From IMG/VR virus record IMGVR_UViG_2711768074_000015: 10,477 nt of DNA; one strand, 5' to 3'. This DNA comes from a virus. Taxonomy: Duplodnaviria > Heunggongvirae > Uroviricota > Caudoviricetes. Each line of letters begins with the position of its first letter. Position 1 is the first letter of the stretch. Positions 1,969-8,948 of the stretch are shown here, piece after piece. A program made the position numbers and the translations under genes. The notes beneath the pieces are model-generated. The model saw only the letters and a program-made list of their open reading frames with translations. It made no database searches and was not told where the DNA came from.

Positions 1969-3198
1969 TTAGGCTACCAGAGCATTTGATCTTTGAGCTT
2001 GAACGTAATCACTCCACCATTGCATCAAACTCTGTCGCTCTATCAGATATTCTGCACGATTGTATGCTGCGATAATTTCATCTTTTTTCGAGTGGGCAAG
2101 CGCTGCCTCAAGAACTTCAGCTCTGAATTTACCAGACTCCTCTGCCGCTGTTCGTGCAATAGAACGCATACCGTGAGCTACAAGCTCGCCTCCGAACCCC
2201 ATTCGGATGATAGCTGCGTTGGCTGTTTGTTCATGCATATGATTAAGAGGCGCTTTTATGCTGGGGAAAACCCATTCTCTATGCCCACTTATTGATTTCA
2301 TTAATTCAAGGATGCGCAAAGCTTCTTTACTCAAAGGAACTTTGTGAAGCTTTTTCATTTTCATGAAATCAGCAGGAATGTTCCAAATGCTGTTGGTTGT
2401 ATCAATATCAGACCACCTTGCGCGAACGGCTTCACCCGGACGAACCCATGTCAACAATTGCCATTCAATTAGCATACGTGTTTCCAACCGGATTGACGCA
2501 TTCGTCAAAGATTCCATAAACCTTGGCAATTCGCTTGGGGGAAGGGCAGGCATATTTTGCTTTTTTGGTTTACTGAATCTTTGACCAAGGTTGTCAGCCG
2601 GGTTGAACTCAATAAGTTCTTCAGTAGCTGCCCACCGGAAGATTTCATTCAGACGTGAAATGATACGGCGTAGAGTTTCCAATACGCCTCGTTGCTCAAT
2701 AGGATCAAGGTGTTGTTTTAAGAGCTTAGGTCGGATCTCATTGATAGGGACATTACCCAGACCGGGAAAGACATTTCTCTCTAAGCTGCGCCAGATGTCT
2801 GCTGCATGGTCTTGTGAGATACCTGATGTCTTTACCTTCTCATCTAACCATTTCCGCGCTACGGCTTGGAGAGTGTGCTCAGTAGCACTCTTTAATGCCT
2901 TCGCCTTATCGTTGTTATGGATTTGGGGATCAACACCATTTGCCAGAAAGGAGAGATATTCATCACGTAAGGCTCTGGCTCTTGCAAGGGTAAGGTGAGG
3001 ATATGTCCCAAGGCTCATTTTGGTTCTTTTCTTGCTCACTGGTACTGCATACCTGAAATACCAATTTTTCTTGCCTCCTTTCGCCAAAGGAGCGATTCGT
3101 AGAATCAGACCATCACCGTCAAACAAGTTGATTTCTTTATCGGCTGGCTTGGTGCTTTTGATTTCAGTGTCAGTGAGCTTCTTAGCGATTTTTGCCAT
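1969..3198 (-). CDS. int: Tyrosine recombinase / integrase, phage P4 (CP4-57 IntA-like) family
   Basis: The translation has the P4-type N-terminal arm-binding region (MAKIAKKLTDTEIKSTKP...FDGDGLILRI...WYFRY). The C-terminal catalytic region is HGMRSIARTAAEE ... AHSKKDEIIAAYNRAEYLIERQSLMQWWSDYV, colinear with P4 Int as I remember it (catalytic Tyr in the AYNR-type motif). I chose ATG at 3198 (GAGG 7-12 nt upstream; product starts MAKIAKK) over the ORF-track start at 3240, which has no Shine-Dalgarno. Confidence 0.9.
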   Translation of the reverse strand: MAKIAKKLTDTEIKSTKPADKEINLFDGDGLILRIAPLAKGGKKNWYFRYAVPVSKKRTKMSLGTYPHLTLARARALRDEYLSFLANGVDPQIHNNDKAKALKSATEHTLQAVARKWLDEKVKTSGISQDHAADIWRSLERNVFPGLGNVPINEIRPKLLKQHLDPIEQRGVLETLRRIISRLNEIFRWAATEELIEFNPADNLGQRFSKPKKQNMPALPPSELPRFMESLTNASIRLETRMLIEWQLLTWVRPGEAVRARWSDIDTTNSIWNIPADFMKMKKLHKVPLSKEALRILELMKSISGHREWVFPSIKAPLNHMHEQTANAAIIRMGFGGELVAHGMRSIARTAAEESGKFRAEVLEAALAHSKKDEIIAAYNRAEYLIERQSLMQWWSDYVQAQRSNALVA

Positions 3199-3201
3199 TT
3201 T

Positions 3202-3238
3202 GGGACCCTCGGTTTTTGGACCCTTCTTAGTGGGTCCC
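3202..3238. promoter_or_regulatory. Three copies of a 7-bp GGGACCC-type motif at 15-bp spacing in the leader of the P4-like integrase
   Basis: GGGACCC at 3202..3208, TGGACCC at 3217..3223 and GGGTCCC (the inverse complement) at 3232..3238, immediately upstream of the integrase ATG at 3198. The alternative reading is a repetitive GP(T/K)K peptide if translation started at 3240. Confidence 0.3.
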
Positions 3239-3294
3239 ATTCAGGGTGCCATAACTCGTAGTTCTCAGCAATTCTCACTGGACGACAATAGACG

Positions 3295-3328
3295 TAAAAA
3301 AGCCCGCAGAGCTTGTGCTGTGTGGGCT
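3295..3328 (-). terminator. Terminator-like hairpin followed by a U-run on the minus strand, about 36 nt downstream of the tmRNA 3' end
   Basis: Minus-strand arms GCCCACACAGC / GCTCTGCGGGC (about 9 of 11 pairs, 4-nt loop) followed by TTTTTT (the plus-strand A-run at 3296..3301). The position fits the native terminator of ssrA. Confidence 0.45.
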
Positions 3329-3363
3329 TAGTAGACTTCATTGAACTTCAAACAACTAAAAAG

Positions 3364-3400
3364 TGGTGGAGCTGGCGGGAGTTGAACCCGTATCCGAAAA
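3364..3400 (-). ncRNA. ssrA: 3'-terminal fragment of tmRNA (ssrA), a partial copy acting as an att-site junction, not an intact gene
   Basis: The minus strand reads UUUUCGGAUACGGGUUCAACUCCCGCCAGCUCCACCA. The last 27 nt match the T-arm, acceptor 3' strand and CCA end of E. coli tmRNA as I remember it (...GGACGCGGGUUCAACUCCCGCCAGCUCCACCA). The 3 differences lie at the 5' side and one would break the T-stem. The sequence upstream of the fragment (3401 onward) does not resemble the tmRNA body. Confidence 0.75.
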
Positions 3401-3448
3401 ATTCTTAACCAATTGAATATTAATGATTTTTCTAATTTAAAATACCTC

Positions 3449-3470
3449 ACGTGCATTTTACGTGCATATT
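3449..3470 (+). repeat. Tandem direct repeat ACGTGCATTTT / ACGTGCATATT (11-bp period)
   Basis: Read directly: ACGTGCAT at 3449..3456 and again at 3460..3467, about 50 bp from the att junction core and just downstream of promoter-like TTGAAT / TAAAAT elements (3412..3442). Candidate arm-type integrase sites or an operator. Confidence 0.5.
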
Positions 3471-3656
3471 GTAGTACCTCTAACGTCCTGATTCTGTCCA
3501 ACATTTTGAAGTGTTTAGGCGCCACTGGGGCGGTGATTAGCGCTGTTTTGTGCTGTTCATAGCACTTCAAGACTATTCAATTCAGAGCAATCGTTGAAGA
3601 ATTACCCGTAAGGTAATATCATACTATTTAGGTAACTGCGGTTATCACCATCAAGG

Positions 3657-3691
3657 GCCACTGATGACGCTGTTATCATCAGTGGCTTTTT
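3657..3691 (+). terminator. Rho-independent terminator (11-bp perfect stem, 8-nt loop, T5 tail) on the plus strand
   Basis: GCCACTGATGA (3657..3667), loop CGCTGTTA, TCATCAGTGGC (3676..3686), then TTTTT (3687..3691). No plus-strand ORF of 60 aa or more lies upstream of it in the ORF track, so it would terminate a noncoding transcript or act as an attenuator for the operon starting at 3734. Confidence 0.6.
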
Positions 3692-3733
3692 GTACCTTCA
3701 CTGCACAGCCAGTGAAGTGTTGAGGAGACTAGC

Positions 3734-4075
3734 ATGAGAACAGTAGCGAGAAGATCGATACAGACGATTGAGCGTCGGACTCAACTCGTCAGTTCTTTTG
3801 TTGACTCAAACACAGCAAACGAGTTCTTCGTGAGAAGACTGAGTGATCGTGTCTCCCCGGCACGTCAGCTGTTTATTGTGACATTGAACAATGAGGTTCG
3901 TGACGGTGACGTGATCCCGTTCGCTGAGATCGCCATGAACAAAGAAAAATTGCGCTATGTTGTGAAGCCAGCAGATCAGTATCCTCAGTATGTAAGCAGT
4001 AATCTGCTGAAGAAAATTGAAGCGGCAATTGCTCTATACATGCAGAAGAACTACAGGGAAATTAACTACCATTAA
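3734..4075 (+). CDS. Hypothetical protein (113 aa), first gene of a two-gene cargo operon
   Basis: ATG at 3734 with GAGGAG 6 nt upstream. The next gene follows 11 nt downstream. I recognise no family signature. Confidence 0.6.
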   Translation: MRTVARRSIQTIERRTQLVSSFVDSNTANEFFVRRLSDRVSPARQLFIVTLNNEVRDGDVIPFAEIAMNKEKLRYVVKPADQYPQYVSSNLLKKIEAAIALYMQKNYREINYH

Positions 4076-4086
4076 AAGGTTGCTGA

Positions 4087-4854
4087 ATGGCTCCTGCGTT
4101 AATACCTTCATATAACAAGGACTTGAACATTACGCCATTTGGCGAAAAACGTCTTATTGAGTCATTCTATTTTTTCACTGCCGAGGCTGGCTTACTGAGG
4201 GCTGATGAGTACATTGTCAGTTCTGGTGAGTTTCAGTACTACTTGGATGTGTATCAACTGGGATGTTCCACCGACGACTTTTTTTTAGACTATGGCAGTG
4301 ACCTTCTTGATTCGAAGGTTCCAATGCAGGATCTGGTCAATACCCTCTTGGGTCTTGATATGGTAGACGATAACAAAACGATAAGAATAGGTCGTATACA
4401 GTTCAACGACTTTAATTTTATCGAAGAGAACGGTCAGATGATGACCGGAAAGCAAGTGAAAAGCGCTGTTATCGCACAGGATTTCCAATCAGCAGGTTTG
4501 GCGCGTGAGATCTATAAAATGCTTGCGCGAAAGCATGAGTTTCTCATCTGCGATAACATTCAAAGTATTGCCGGTGGTGCTCTTTGGGCTAGTAGCATCA
4601 TTCGAATTGCCGAGGTACGGATCTACAATTCACGCACGAAGAAATTTATGGACATACTTGGTCCAGGTGCGCGTGGCGTTTCAGGTACTTTGCCATGGAG
4701 TGCGAATGATCTGTCTGTAGATGAGATTGTTCGCTGGGGTCGTGCGTATGATGATGAAAACTGTTGTCGTCACATTGTACATGTTATCTGTAAGGACCGA
4801 CTCATTGACGATCAATTTCATGATTATGTTTCGATAGGTGGCGCGACAGAATAA
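4087..4854 (+). CDS. Hypothetical protein (255 aa), second gene of the cargo operon
   Basis: ATG at 4087 with AAGG upstream, and a terminator immediately after the stop. The segment SAVIAQDFQSAGLAREIYKML loosely resembles the Q/R-x-x-G-x-G/A motif of GNAT acyltransferases, but this is a weak pattern match, not a call. Confidence 0.6.
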   Translation: MAPALIPSYNKDLNITPFGEKRLIESFYFFTAEAGLLRADEYIVSSGEFQYYLDVYQLGCSTDDFFLDYGSDLLDSKVPMQDLVNTLLGLDMVDDNKTIRIGRIQFNDFNFIEENGQMMTGKQVKSAVIAQDFQSAGLAREIYKMLARKHEFLICDNIQSIAGGALWASSIIRIAEVRIYNSRTKKFMDILGPGARGVSGTLPWSANDLSVDEIVRWGRAYDDENCCRHIVHVICKDRLIDDQFHDYVSIGGATE

Positions 4855-4859
4855 CCATC

Positions 4860-4888
4860 AAAAAGACCCGGCATTTGCCGGGTTTTTT
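4860..4888. terminator. Bidirectional intrinsic terminator between the convergent cargo operon and the phage integrase
   Basis: Stem CCCGGC (4867..4872), loop ATTT, GCCGGG (4877..4882), flanked by AAAAAGA upstream and TTTTTT downstream, so it gives a U-tail on both strands. Confidence 0.7.
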
Positions 4889-4895
4889 CTTCAAA

Positions 4896-6074
4896 TCACT
4901 TCTTCATTCCAGATTCCATTGCGGTTTTCCCGTCGTATTCAGCCAGGTATTTACCGTAATTGCGGAACAGCATTTCCGGCCCCTTATGCCCCATCTGCCC
5001 GGCAAGCCAGAAAAGGTTTACACCCTGGCTAATGTGTCTGGTGGCGAATGTGTGGCGCGTCTGGTACGGGTTACGGTAGCGCACACCAGCTTTTTTCAGG
5101 GTCGGCACCCATGCTTTTTTACGGATAGCGTCGGCGTTCGTCCAGGGATCTCCCGTTTTCGGATCGCTGAATATGAACTCACTTTTCATAAAGGTGTATT
5201 GCTTCTGCGCCTGCAGGGCCGCCAGCGCCTCACTGTTCAGCTCCACCTTACGGGTACCGGCTTTTGTCTTGGTGCCTTTAAGTACCCCTACGACACTGGC
5301 CGCCTGTATGTGCGCTGTATTACCTATAAAGTCGATATCGGTCCAACGTAATGCGCATAGCTCAGAGCTGCGTAGCCCTGTATTGAAGGCGAAGCGGAAC
5401 AGATTCTGCCATTCCTGATACTTGCAGTGCTGATATATGGCACTGGTTTCCGCAGGCGCAAACGGATCAACTTCGTAATCGTCGGCGTTCGGTTTACTGT
5501 CGACCACGTGATACCGGCTGGCGCTGACAAGAGTTACCGGGTTAATAGTCAACAGGCCATCAGTTACAGCCTCATCAATGGCGCTGCGCAGAAATGACAG
5601 GTTATTCCTGATTGTTTTCAGCTTAGTTTTTCGGCTGGCTATCCAATTTTTTAGTACCGCAGGCGTCAATTCTGTTACATGTAGTTTATGTAGTTCTGAT
5701 AGTGCTGATAGACATTTTTCGTAACCGCCAATGGTTGACGGCGACAGATTGCGGTTCATGCAAATTTTCAGGTATTCATCAAGATAGGACTTAATATTTT
5801 GGGTTTTCTTTACTACACCGAATAACTCCAGTTTTTTGGAACTGGGGAAATATTTCGCATATTCAAACGTTCCGCTGGCGATCTGATTTTGTATCTCCCC
5901 TAGCAGGCGCTCAGCATATTTAATACCACGTGTATTTGCCTCAAGCCGAGACAGGGGCTCCCTGCAAAGAACCCCTTTATATGTGAAAGTGATAACTAGT
6001 GTTGAAGCAGTTTTATGCTTACGAATAGTTACTCCTCTTGGCAGAGATAATAATCCTTGTTCTTTCTTGCCCAT
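4896..6074 (-). CDS. int: Phage tyrosine integrase (lambdoid type, with N-terminal arm-binding domain)
   Basis: 392 aa. ATG at 6074 with AGAGG upstream. The C-terminus YQTRHTFATRHISQGVNLFWLAGQMGHKGPEMLFRNYGKY has the R-H-x-x-R ... Y catalytic pattern of tyrosine recombinases. The N-terminal block GVTIRKHKTASTLVITFTYKGV is typical of an arm-binding domain. The 5' end overlaps the 3' end of the upstream xis-like gene. Confidence 0.9.
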   Translation of the reverse strand: MGKKEQGLLSLPRGVTIRKHKTASTLVITFTYKGVLCREPLSRLEANTRGIKYAERLLGEIQNQIASGTFEYAKYFPSSKKLELFGVVKKTQNIKSYLDEYLKICMNRNLSPSTIGGYEKCLSALSELHKLHVTELTPAVLKNWIASRKTKLKTIRNNLSFLRSAIDEAVTDGLLTINPVTLVSASRYHVVDSKPNADDYEVDPFAPAETSAIYQHCKYQEWQNLFRFAFNTGLRSSELCALRWTDIDFIGNTAHIQAASVVGVLKGTKTKAGTRKVELNSEALAALQAQKQYTFMKSEFIFSDPKTGDPWTNADAIRKKAWVPTLKKAGVRYRNPYQTRHTFATRHISQGVNLFWLAGQMGHKGPEMLFRNYGKYLAEYDGKTAMESGMKK

Positions 6075-6762: not shown

Positions 6763-7331
6763 TCATTCCGGATGCTCCTGAGCCACATTGAAATCGCCAT
6801 GATCACGACAAGGCATCACAACAAATTCAGGATTGCCATACATTGAGTTGATGATGGAATCAAACTGAATTCTGACCGCTTGCCCGTCACCGGAGGAACG
6901 TAACTGGACGGGAATAAATTTACGCTCACGACCAAACATCTTCTCTGGATAACTCAGGTAACCCGCCTGGATCACCGGGTGTGTACAGAGGTCAAATTTT
7001 TTCGGAATGATGCGTTCCAAATCCGGAAAACAACCGTCCACCAATTTAATGCCGGTAATGGACAGCCGGCGCTGAAACTGGTCGCGATGAACAGGATCGG
7101 CTCTTTACTAAAAATCAGCTCTGTCGTTTCGGCTTTGGCCGGGACGCCACCTTCGAACTGGACAATGATGTTTTTCTTCGTCCGGATGCCGTGAGTCATG
7201 CGCAGTGCTACGAAACCATTGGTTGCCTCAATATGTTTTGGCGTGATGTGAAGACCGTTCAGGTAATAACGAACGTCGTTTTTAGCAGCGCACACCAGAG
7301 CGGCGCGAATAAGTTTTGACTGGATGATCAT
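6763..7331 (-). pseudogene. Beta-sliding-clamp (DnaN) domain II-III-like protein lacking domain I, reading frame interrupted by a frameshift near 7045..7075
   Basis: The two overlapping minus-strand ORFs (6972..7331 and 6763..7044) are colinear with E. coli DnaN as I remember it: AAKNDVRYYLNGLHI...ATNGFVAL vs AHQDVRYYLNGMLF...ATDGHRLA; ILFIATS/ELIFSK vs FIFTSK; then in the second frame KLVDGCFPDLERIIPKKFD vs KLVDGRFPDYRRVLPKNPD and EFVVMPCR vs AYVVMPMRL. The frame switch falls where the plus strand reads GCCGG-TAATGGACA-GCCGGC. The start ATG at 7331 has a GGAGG Shine-Dalgarno and overlaps the upstream stop (ATGA). Confidence 0.55.
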
Positions 7332-8077
7332 GCTTTATCCTCCCATCCGATTACCTGAAAAAGCCCCATCTTCGGGTGATACCAGCGTGTGCCGCGTGGT
7401 TCAGCCTCTGACATCATTTGGTGGAACGCCGCCATAAATGTCTCAAGCTCGACGACAGCCCTGCGAGACAACAGACCGTCCGGAGTCATAAATTCGTGCG
7501 TGTCGGTAGGGATGTGGTAGGCGTTGACCAGATTCCGACACTTGGCGTCACTCATTCCGCTTTTGGCTACCACCTGGCGGTAACCGACATATCCGGTGCG
7601 CATTGTGCCGCGTTTGATGTTCTCCACAGCTTTGGTGACCGTTTCGATCTTCTCTTCAACATGACTCAGGCGCTTCTGCTGGCGAACGGCATCGGCGGCC
7701 ATTGCAGCGATCATCTCCATTTCCGTCAGCGGCGCGTGAGTTCGGAAATAGCTGTTAACCAGTTCGCGCTGAACCTGCCATGCAAGAGCATCGTTAAAAG
7801 GCTTCGTCAACATCAGGTAACCAGACTCGAAAAGAATGATCCCTTTGGCAGTTCGCGCGGCAAAGGCATCAGAAAGTGACTCCGTACGTATTACGTCCGC
7901 AGTCATTTCAAGAAAATCCACCCCTTCGATAAAGTGAGAACGGTTGCGGTTAAACGCAGCACGGGCGGTACCTTCCGGGCGCTGGTGGACGTCATCAATT
8001 ATTGCAAATGTCACAACACGCTGACCGCGATATTCGATTACCGGAAACTGTTTGTTGTTGATGGTTACAATATTCAT
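7328..8077 (-). CDS. KilA-N / ORF6N (Bro-N-like) domain protein, antirepressor-like
   Basis: ATG at 8077 with GGAG 5 nt upstream (the ORF-track start at 8152 is less likely). The N-terminus MNIVTINNKQFPVIEYRGQRVVTFAIIDDVHQRPEGTARAAFNRNRSHFIEGVDFLE has the shape of phage KilA-N/ORF6N DNA-binding domains. This is a family-level call from memory. Confidence 0.6.
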   Translation of the reverse strand: MNIVTINNKQFPVIEYRGQRVVTFAIIDDVHQRPEGTARAAFNRNRSHFIEGVDFLEMTADVIRTESLSDAFAARTAKGIILFESGYLMLTKPFNDALAWQVQRELVNSYFRTHAPLTEMEMIAAMAADAVRQQKRLSHVEEKIETVTKAVENIKRGTMRTGYVGYRQVVAKSGMSDAKCRNLVNAYHIPTDTHEFMTPDGLLSRRAVVELETFMAAFHQMMSEAEPRGTRWYHPKMGLFQVIGWEDKA

Positions 8078-8120
8078 TTTTATCTCCAGACAGCCCGGCG
8101 TGTAATACCGGGCATATGTA

Positions 8121-8948
8121 TTACTTAACCTGAATAAATGGTGTGTTGGCACCGCTGGTCATGTATTGCGGCAGTGTACCGTTCCACTTGTTGATGGCTT
8201 CCAGCTCCATAACACCGGGGTTCTGGCGCAGAGCTTCACCGCGTAAACGAATAGCATCGGCTTCGGCCTGGGCTTTTGTGCGAATCGCATCTGCCTGTCC
8301 GGCAGCTTCCGCGCGCAACATGTTGGCTTCCGCTTCGCGCTGTTTTACTTCCTGCTCGCGTTGCAGGGTTTTCTGGTTCGCCGTGACTTTGGCATTAATG
8401 CTGTCGATAACAGTAGGTGGGTACTCCGGCTTACCCACATATGAGAGGCTCATTACCTGAATACCGATGGGCGTCATTTCTTCCTGAATGTCTTTAAGAG
8501 CTGCATCCAGCAGCTCAGACTTGCCGCCGTCGATAAATTTGTCGGTGGTCATTTTGCTGGCCAGTCGGTTGAGTGCGTCGGCTATCTTCTGGCGCAGGTC
8601 GGTGTCGGTAATGTCGTCCACGCCTTTGCGGTAGGTCTGAAAGACTGTGGTAACTTTGGATGGATCAACTTTGTAGGCCACGCCGATGTGATAGCCGATG
8701 GTTGTACCGTCACTCATCTGGAAACTGAATGGATCATCGTAGGTCTTCATCTGCTTAAAGGTCGGGAAGATGTAAACCTCAGTGTTCCATCCCGTCCAGT
8801 AGCGCCCAACACCGACCACTTCACCGACGCCTTTATCGTCGCCCAGTTTGTTTACTTTGATGCCCACATTACCAGGCTCAACGCGATCGCAACCGACAAG
8901 GCCAATGGTCGGCAGAACAAGGGCTAAAGCAAAAAGTAATTTTTTCAT
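8121..8948 (-). CDS. SPFH / band-7 (prohibitin-like) domain lipoprotein, predicted inner-membrane anchored
   Basis: Signal peptide with lipobox MKKLLFALALVLPTIGLVGC followed by Asp at +2 (the inner-membrane retention rule in E. coli). SPFH-like core, then a C-terminal Ala/Glu/Gln/Arg-rich coiled-coil region (QREQEVKQREAEANMLRAEAAGQADAIRTKAQAEADAIRLRGEALRQNP). The start ATG overlaps the stop of the upstream small TM gene (ATGA). Confidence 0.8.
   Translation of the reverse strand: MKKLLFALALVLPTIGLVGCDRVEPGNVGIKVNKLGDDKGVGEVVGVGRYWTGWNTEVYIFPTFKQMKTYDDPFSFQMSDGTTIGYHIGVAYKVDPSKVTTVFQTYRKGVDDITDTDLRQKIADALNRLASKMTTDKFIDGGKSELLDAALKDIQEEMTPIGIQVMSLSYVGKPEYPPTVIDSINAKVTANQKTLQREQEVKQREAEANMLRAEAAGQADAIRTKAQAEADAIRLRGEALRQNPGVMELEAINKWNGTLPQYMTSGANTPFIQVK

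Follow-up and report, generated by a model that had tools for sequence, protein, structure and literature searches.

Organisation of the locus

The DNA analysed here, referred to as the window, is a 10,477 nt stretch of the Caudoviricetes record IMGVR_UViG_2711768074_000015. It spans the junction at which a prophage begins, and contains the following features:

1969-3240, - strand: CP4-57-type integrase gene, to the left of the attachment-site core
3296-3330, - strand: native ssrA terminator, matched by both ends of the Rfam IsrM model
3364-3390, - strand: att core and attL (left prophage junction), 27 bp matching the 3' end of ssrA (tmRNA) exactly
3391 to ~3518, no strand assigned: P' arm of the phage att site, recognised by homology to ssrA prophages without cargo or with other cargo
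3406-3418, - strand: IHF-like site, one mismatch from the consensus, between core and repeats, possibly corresponding to H' of lambda
3449-3459 and 3460-3470, + strand: two tandem 11 bp candidate arm-type Int sites, ACGTGCATTTT and ACGTGCATATT, identical at 10 of 11 positions
3594-3622, + strand: predicted sigma-70-type promoter TTGAAG-17-TATCAT, from a consensus scan
3601-3617: palindrome ATTACC-N5-GGTAAT in the promoter spacer
3631-3646, + strand: hairpin 1 (or palindrome 1), GGTAAC tgcg GTTATC, located where the transcript is predicted to begin
3657-3691, + strand: intrinsic terminator with an 11 bp stem (3657-3667 pairing with 3676-3686), an 8 nt loop and a U5 tract (TTTTT, 3687-3691)
3696-3717, + strand: hairpin 2, a perfect 8 bp stem (3696-3703 pairing with 3710-3717) in the interval between terminator and Shine-Dalgarno sequence
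3723-3736, + strand: Shine-Dalgarno sequence GAGGAG (3723-3728) and orf113 start codon (ATG at 3734), conserved in all homologues
3734-4075, + strand: orf113, cargo gene 1, predicted GNAT-like fold
4087-4854, + strand: orf255, cargo gene 2, predicted GNAT-like fold
4863-4886 (approximate), + strand: terminator hairpin marking the right border of the moron, between orf255 and the convergent int gene, with a partial match to the RsmY terminator stem
4896-6074, - strand: phage tyrosine integrase (int), comprising an N-terminal arm-DNA-binding domain (Pfam Arm-DNA-bind_2, PF12167, 4e-21) and a Phage_integrase domain (PF00589)

At 3364-3390, the 27 bp sequence TGGTGGAGCTGGCGGGAGTTGAACCCG reads as the tmRNA 3' end in reverse complement, and matches the end of the intact ssrA gene at the other end of the prophage, the location of this gene in PhiR12-type prophages generally; hence 3364-3390 represents the core of attL. 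ARAGORN found no complete tRNA or tmRNA gene in the window, where ssrA is present as a 3' fragment only. Everything rightwards from 3391 is phage DNA, and to the right of the core the window shares 98.6-99.3% identity with the PhiR12 phages of Escherichia, at their left end. The prophage is a lambdoid element of the PhiR12/Sp17 family, integrated into the 3' end of ssrA; a literature search on PhiR12 phages returned nothing relevant.

The unannotated stretch of approximately 330 nt between the core and orf113 is a composite of two independent modules lying side by side, an att arm and the control region of a cargo operon, the latter extending from ~3519 to 3733. A preliminary description of this stretch, made from its sequence, had reported tandem repeats, a terminator, a second hairpin and a GAGGAG motif, all of which are present at the positions it gave, and had seen no plausible ORF. 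This last point is supported by comparison: two mechanical ORFs (3413-3562 on the + strand and 3328-3570 on the - strand) are broken by a 13 nt indel in the homologue from Atlantibacter, and the RefSeq annotation of a near-identical genome is empty at this place. An Rfam search (E <= 1) gave a partial tmRNA match at 3364-3455, at the left edge of the stretch, and nothing else in 3400-3733, nor anything in seven other variants of the leader.

The attachment-site arm

The P' arm is 82-90% homologous to the corresponding DNA of ssrA prophages that carry either no cargo or a different cargo. It is widespread, unlike the segment 3475-3733, which was found in just 10 of 5,426 complete E. coli genomes. 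The tandem repeats within it (ACGTGCATTTTACGTGCAT, 59-80 bp to the right of the core) are found again, paired and identically oriented, in the P arm at the opposite prophage end, at 7277-7298 of the L003 sequence, 90-111 bp to the left of a core at 7388. ACGTGCATTTTACGTGCAT is likewise present in this P arm, and the longer arrangement ACGTGCATTTT-ACGTGCAT is found both at 3449-3467 of the window and at 7277-7295 of L003. The P arm adjoining the intact ssrA, represented by the final 160 bp of the record of PhiR12_1 (listed host E. coli K-12), contains ACGTGCATTTTACGTGCATTTTT. The 8-mer of the repeats has no further exact copy in the 10.5 kb window, nor in the final 7.4 kb of the phage record.

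The repeats have also been kept in relatives with arms only ~80-88% identical, in which the surrounding AT-rich DNA has diverged. They are present in the P' arms of L067, L068, L005 and L075 (ATGTGCATTTTACGTACATATT, AAGTGCATTTTGAGTGCATTTT, AAGTGCATTTCACGTGCATATT), and in P arms (L073 and L074; STEC306 and the Sakai Sp17 prophage: ACGTGCATTTTGCGTGTATATT, ACGTGCATTTCACGTGTATATT); the STEC306 prophage, ~82% identical, has the tandem pair in both of its own arms. The IHF-like match, again with one mismatch, lies at the same offset (+42 from the start of the core) in four of five relatives. As an aside, a hairpin followed by a T-run can be seen by eye just before the arm repeats in the P arm of STEC306.

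The occurrence of the repeats in both arms, their conservation in diverged relatives and the presence of an arm-binding domain in the neighbouring integrase together indicate that they are very probably arm-type integrase sites, as the preliminary description had offered for the tandem ACGTGCAT repeats. The N-terminal domain of the integrase, of roughly 80 residues, would then bind the repeats at 3449-3470 while its catalytic domain holds the core, with a bend at the IHF-like site between the two assisting it. The matching repeats of the P arm would complete the intasome once the phage DNA has circularised.

Such an arrangement resembles the paradigm of lambda attP, in which a heterobivalent Int engages P and P' arm sites, with IHF sites located between arm and core (PMC4880445). 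In both cases a tyrosine integrase with an N-terminal arm-binding domain is accompanied by short direct repeats, unrelated to the core and present in both arms tens of bp from it, and the int-proximal arm repeats are in tandem, about one helical turn apart, with an IHF site (here a candidate, with one mismatch) in between. By contrast with lambda, the motif is RYGTGCATWTT, the arm domain belongs to the PF12167 family, the tmRNA gene contains the core, each arm was found to carry two tandem copies rather than the 2 + 3 of lambda (P1, P2, P'1-P'3), and a two-gene moron separates the arm from int; the Int sites here are also predicted from sequence. Close parallels are other ssrA-integrating E. 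coli prophages (Sakai Sp17, PhiR12 and phi467), which share the core and have homologous arms with the repeats. What lies between P' arm and int differs among these prophages: one relative has nothing there, others have a DUF4760 gene, and the present prophage has the orf113/orf255 pair. On these similarities, the left half of the stretch can be added to the family of lambda-type attP arms as a new member.

A mobile two-gene moron

In L067 (E. coli 'numer 3') the P' arm is homologous up to ~3518 and is followed directly by the 3' end of int, with no moron, and in UTAK-6 and phi467 a DUF4760 gene on the - strand occupies the moron's place. From the cargo-less junction and the alternative gene at the same position, ~3519-4890 can be identified as an insertion between P' arm and int.

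Homologues of orf113 with 49-100% amino acid identity were gathered from genomes, metagenomes and IMG/VR, and in every homologous locus orf113 is followed by orf255. Only the closest relatives of the module are located at ssrA beside this integrase. The Serratia odorifera pair is located downstream of a gene for a Q-type antiterminator and of the late region, and in Yersinia enterocolitica it is found between tail genes and an Arc/Bro/Ant region; the modules at these differing genome positions each have their own promoter and leader. The Serratia module is also preceded by three other terminator-like hairpins, as read by eye. When the loci L070 and L072, which represent different contexts, are compared, homology begins just upstream of the -35 element, implying that promoter and leader are part of the mobile unit. 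The module is present in Escherichia, Atlantibacter, Serratia and Yersinia and, going by the source names of database entries, in Citrobacter and Pantoea.

Neither gene has a match in Pfam or PADLOC, and in PHROGs both fall into families of unknown function. A sequence search of the PDB returned nothing for orf113 and two weak matches (E about 0.2) for orf255. Being absent from this site in close relatives and present elsewhere in other phages, orf113 and orf255 are best described, from their genomic distribution, as a mobile, self-contained two-gene moron.

The predicted promoter and the leader terminator

Scanning 3000-4200 for promoters identified exactly one site on the + strand, at 3594-3622. 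Transcription is predicted to start at ~3630, seven nt past the -10 element, and the terminator follows ~35 nt downstream of that element. The predicted terminated RNA would be ~62 nt in length (~3630-3691), consisting of the 5' hairpin, a 10 nt linker and the terminator. From the T-run to the start codon of orf113 is a further 42 nt, in which there is no promoter-like site.

Folding the RNA from 3625 to 3745 yields these same hairpins, with an energy of -40 kcal/mol (z = -2.7; 3 of 200 shuffled sequences were as good), of which the terminator hairpin alone has -17.8 kcal/mol. Its stem-loop is directly followed by the U-tract on the transcribed strand, and the - strand has no T-run at this hairpin. 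By a rough estimate, the chance of finding a perfect 11 bp stem with a short loop in 330 random bases is below 1e-3. An imperfect 13 nt direct repeat is also present, its copies (3638-3650 and 3669-3681) being 31 nt apart. A candidate pairing of the leader RNA near +700 of the module mRNA was discarded, as shuffled leaders do as well.

Conservation of the leader

Among 29 distinct regions upstream of orf113 homologues, the sequence is often unalignable, but the layout is retained in most. Most variants have a TTGAAx-17-TAnnAT promoter, the -10 element of which ends at a near-constant ~105-115 nt before the ATG, with a short palindrome or hairpin immediately after it. When scored by a script, 22 of the 29 have a hairpin and T-run, represented by 17 distinct hairpin sequences, with the T-run starting 38-53 nt ahead of the ATG. 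Next there is usually a second hairpin, followed by the Shine-Dalgarno sequence, and in other lineages the position of hairpin 2 is occupied by a hairpin of different sequence. The leaders of L024, L050, L057, L035, L037, L062 and L034 failed the script on the hairpin and T-run. By eye, L034 and L062 have an unscored hairpin before a T-run, which leaves five with none or with a weak U-tract. Conservation stops short of the distant SSU5/PhiR41-type homologues, which have no leader terminator. Given these leaders without a clear terminator, those of SSU5 type included, the terminator would not be indispensable.

Base pairing was evaluated in an alignment of ten leaders (group A), in which pairs were counted against a named structure derived from the window. 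Standard pairs account for 96.8% of the pair cells compared with 22-67% in slid controls, a contrast that is flattered by the relatedness of the group A sequences and by the derivation of the structure from the window. In the terminator helix (helix 2) 99.1% of the cells pair. Six of its pairs vary, always on one side only, and where a cell differs from the commonest pair (16 cases), it is G.U on the + strand in 15 and unpaired in one. As a G.U pair on the + strand corresponds to an A.C mismatch on the - strand, the structure under selection is that of the + strand RNA. This wobble asymmetry and the existence of 17 unrelated stems are stronger arguments than the slid control. Compensatory double changes are seen at two pairs of hairpin 2 (C-G/U-A and U-A/C-G), and in hairpin 1 all cells pair; a T-A to C-G double change in hairpin 1 was also noticed in some lineages on reading the sequences.

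Automated approaches across lineages recovered less. A MAFFT and RNAalifold consensus of all 23 leader variants was in poor register and predicted just four pairs, and a covariance model derived from the group A leaders detected those of group B weakly and missed group C altogether; its mixed-strand alignment was left unused. The palindromes in the promoter spacer vary by lineage, being ATTACC-N5-GGTAAT here and TATAGCT-N2-AGCTATA or TAAGC-N2-GCTTA elsewhere. In group C leaders the same palindrome can be seen by eye twice, in the spacer and at the start site, an arrangement reminiscent of operators. The spacer palindromes, and likewise hairpin 1 (RATAAC-N4-GTTATY), could equally be DNA operators or RNA structure.

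A 19-codon ORF lying over the terminator (3664-3723) was considered as a leader peptide and rejected: it is retained with a GTG start in L005, is truncated in L026 and has no start codon visible at the equivalent place in groups B and C.

Proposed function of the promoter-proximal terminator

The preliminary description had found nothing obvious for the terminator to act on. That impression is not upheld, as the terminator stands ~35 nt after the -10 element of a promoter conserved in homologous modules. Since the promoter-terminator-gene layout is conserved with the cargo across genera and contexts, the terminator belongs to the cargo leader; and as the 42 nt before the ATG contain no promoter-like site, the conserved promoter is the only visible source of cargo mRNA. 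The sigma-70 promoter would thus start an RNA at ~3630, the first 16 nt of which would fold into the 5' hairpin. Around 10 nt later, the terminator would stop most polymerases and release the ~62 nt RNA, such that read-through transcripts alone would carry hairpin 2, the Shine-Dalgarno sequence and both genes. The terminator would accordingly serve as a promoter-proximal gate that holds cargo expression low or conditional, the simplest reading being a constitutive, leaky termination. The account as a whole, a lambdoid P' arm with arm-type sites joined to a moron with a promoter-proximal terminator gate, is regarded as probable, with appreciable room for doubt.

Several other interpretations bear on the same evidence. 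The terminator may be part of a regulated attenuator built on pairing between the 3' half of hairpin 1 and the terminator's 5' arm and loop, so that a factor opening or blocking hairpin 1 would activate the cargo. The preliminary description had likewise proposed a terminator/antiterminator leader, and of this the terminator, tied to the cargo genes across genera and contexts, is sustained, but the antiterminator is at chance level in the window. There, the duplex has an energy of -11.0 kcal/mol against a shuffle mean of -11.5, with 257 of 500 shuffles as good, and the terminator hairpin, at -17.8 kcal/mol, is well ahead of the -11 of the best duplex with the upstream segment. The first copy of the 13 nt repeat (3638-3650) does mimic the terminator loop and the start of its 3' arm, and folds of the nascent RNA of several relatives form the alternative helix between hairpin 1 and terminator, which beats shuffles in L005 (7/500), L026 (8/500), L031 (1/500) and L052 (19/500). 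Alternative folding is thus significant in some relatives, yet these amount to just 4 of the 16 tested; the helix is not above chance in L020, L017 and L022 and is absent from group C leaders. With ~27 nt before the terminator, there is also no space for an aptamer, and no leader peptide is conserved past the closest relatives, making regulated attenuation unlikely, if conceivable. A slightly dimmer view is taken of the ~62 nt RNA (~3630-3691) being itself the functional product, as a trans-acting small RNA or an antitoxin-like partner of the GNAT-like proteins, with the terminator setting the ratio of RNA to protein as in type III toxin-antitoxin loci. The layout would suit this, but there is one imperfect 13 nt duplication in place of a tandem RNA repeat array, no protein with a predicted ToxN/AbiQ-like fold, no PADLOC match and no Rfam family; moreover, the linker sequence is not conserved between lineages, and complementarity of the leader to its own mRNA is no better than that of shuffled leaders. 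Overlapping with both of these ideas is the bolder one, credited with a slim chance, that the unit of promoter, hairpin, terminator and hairpin 2 is a new riboregulatory element: either a factor-dependent attenuator or the RNA of a three-part toxin or defence module, which may consist of the RNA and two GNAT-like proteins and be shuttled by phages between genome positions.

Alternatively, the terminator could act purely as an insulator against transcription entering the moron, whether across attP of the circularised phage or from neighbouring phage genes, with the promoter inactive or its palindromes serving as repressor operators and the cargo expressed from elsewhere. Morons are commonly bracketed by terminators. 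The Serratia module, moreover, lies downstream of a Q gene and of the late region, where only an antiterminated polymerase would pass, and the spacer palindromes change between lineages as operators do. However, just 42 nt without a promoter-like site separate T-run and ATG, most variants preserve both the sequence and the spacing of the promoter-like element that precedes the terminator, homology between modules from different contexts begins just upstream of the -35 element, and the P arm of STEC306, as read by eye, already has a hairpin and T-run of its own; a purely insulating role consequently appears improbable. Hardly any credence is given to the remaining explanations, namely a single long structured RNA (~3445-3691) or structures arising by chance in AT-rich intergenic DNA. 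The former corresponds to the small RNA of ~250 nt suggested by the preliminary description, and the fold of 3440-3695 does have a z score of -3.5. Nevertheless, the scan found no promoter-like site near 3445, the left part of the putative RNA (3391 to ~3518) is att-arm DNA found in relatives without the right part, and a 13 nt indel and poor conservation in 3520-3545 break the long-range pairs; any discrete RNA, if one exists, would be ~62 nt rather than ~250 nt long. Chance structures are excluded by the conservation and covariation of the individual hairpins.

Comparison with known leaders and morons

Like other phage morons, the orf113/orf255 unit comes with a predicted sigma-70 promoter of its own, ends in a terminator, lies as an insert between conserved genes of the phage and occupies different positions in different phages; unlike the usual moron, it has an extra, conserved intrinsic terminator between promoter and first gene. 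A terminator within ~60 nt of a promoter and ahead of the genes is shared with the lambda PR'-tR' 6S RNA, the leaders of amino acid operons and small RNAs derived from 5' UTRs. In contrast to such leaders, the window shows neither an adjacent Q gene nor a recognisable Q-binding element, and the leader has no conserved peptide, aptamer-sized region, Rfam match or consistently conserved antiterminator. For want of a conserved antiterminator and an aptamer, it does not qualify as a riboswitch or classical attenuator.

The type III toxin-antitoxin systems, exemplified by ToxIN, have a comparable order of promoter, short structured RNA, Rho-independent terminator and protein gene or genes on a mobile element. 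The present locus departs from ToxIN in having no tandem repeat array, in encoding proteins with predicted GNAT-like folds instead of a ToxN/AbiQ endoribonuclease and in having no PADLOC match, and assignment to this class was rejected on the absence of a repeat array and of a ToxN-like protein. The right half of the stretch is thus a moron with an unusual, if conceptually familiar, promoter-proximal terminator.

Implications

A previously unannotated gap of 330 nt can now be mapped into the core, the probable arm-type sites, a candidate IHF site, the left border of a moron, its predicted promoter and a leader terminator, and a strong terminator that had seemed purposeless is accounted for. 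Novelty is modest, neither an att arm nor a leader terminator being conceptually new. The assignment of the arm-type sites bears on the recombination of ssrA-integrating lambdoid phages, including Sp17 of E. coli O157:H7 Sakai. The leader represents a candidate cis-regulatory RNA outside Rfam, which travels with an uncharacterised gene pair. Of most interest would be conditional read-through of the terminator, or a function of the 62 nt RNA in its own right; if read-through, and with it the release of termination, is conditional, the leader would show how a phage silences possibly toxic cargo in lysogens.

Leader hairpins and ribosome-binding site

The leader of the moron, a cargo insertion carrying the two genes orf113 and orf255, contains two further features:

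3638-3650 and 3669-3681, imperfect 13-nt direct repeat, GCGGTTATCACCA / GCTGTTATCATCA
3664-3723, 19-codon ORF, MTLLSSVAFCTFTAQPVKC, starting within the 5' arm of the leader terminator and stopping at the orf113 Shine-Dalgarno sequence

Through the repeat, the 3' side of hairpin 1, which precedes the terminator, resembles the terminator loop and the beginning of the terminator 3' arm. The antiterminator-like pairing arising from this repeat is significant in some relatives, and is not significant in the window. In the group-C leaders, which come from distant homologues (L025, L027, L061, L030 and L032), the ~30 nt preceding the ATG contain a hairpin, downstream of the terminator, in which CUUCC is base-paired to the Shine-Dalgarno motif GGAGG; this hairpin therefore sequesters the ribosome-binding site. 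By contrast, hairpin 2 of the window leaves the Shine-Dalgarno sequence free. The frame of the 19-codon ORF is intact in the Atlantibacter homologue, where the start codon is GTG; other lineages have either a truncated version or none.

Context and borders of the moron

In two homologous loci, Rfam matches to sar RNA, the antisense RNA of the P22 immI region, were found downstream of the module at a distance of approximately 1-1.3 kb: at 3524-3592 in L029 (46.8 bits, exceeding the gathering score of 43) and at 4353-4422 in L052 (36.1 bits, below the gathering score). Their proximity to the modules fits the immI-like context observed in Yersinia. Separately, a full match to isrN is present at 4715-4856 in L030.

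The start of the moron insertion (3520-3550) is weakly similar to the region of the int 3' end (~3262-3300) in L067, a cargo-less E. coli relative; this resemblance may have been left behind by the insertion event. A partial match to RsmY at 4847-4886 is confined to a terminator stem and simply corresponds to the hairpin that separates orf255 from int, two convergent genes.

The ssrA junction and flanking regions

Two regions outside the moron are also relevant:

1969-3240, minus strand, CP4-57-type integrase, the second integrase of the window (Pfam Arm-DNA-bind_3)
7328-8948, minus strand, early-left region of the prophage, with genes for two proteins, one with an ORF6N domain and one of the SPFH/Band 7 type

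IsrM is a small RNA encoded on a Salmonella island. Only the two ends of its Rfam model match the window (3296-3373, minus strand), scoring 53 bits relative to a gathering score of 376. Because the matched stretch consists of the ssrA 3' end and the native ssrA terminator, the Salmonella IsrM locus is suggested to lie on an ssrA-att remnant.

The early-left region differs from the O103:H2 PV16-126 prophage, which is near-identical elsewhere, and is therefore mosaic. The CP4-57-type integrase gene adjoins the displaced ssrA end, directly downstream, and the DNA beyond it (1-1930) has a low G+C content of ~33%; for the counterpart of this DNA in a near-identical genome, three products are annotated: an ATP-binding protein, a protein labelled 'response regulator receiver domain' and a hypothetical protein of 138 aa. 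The position of this integrase beside the displaced ssrA end thus indicates two elements in tandem at ssrA.
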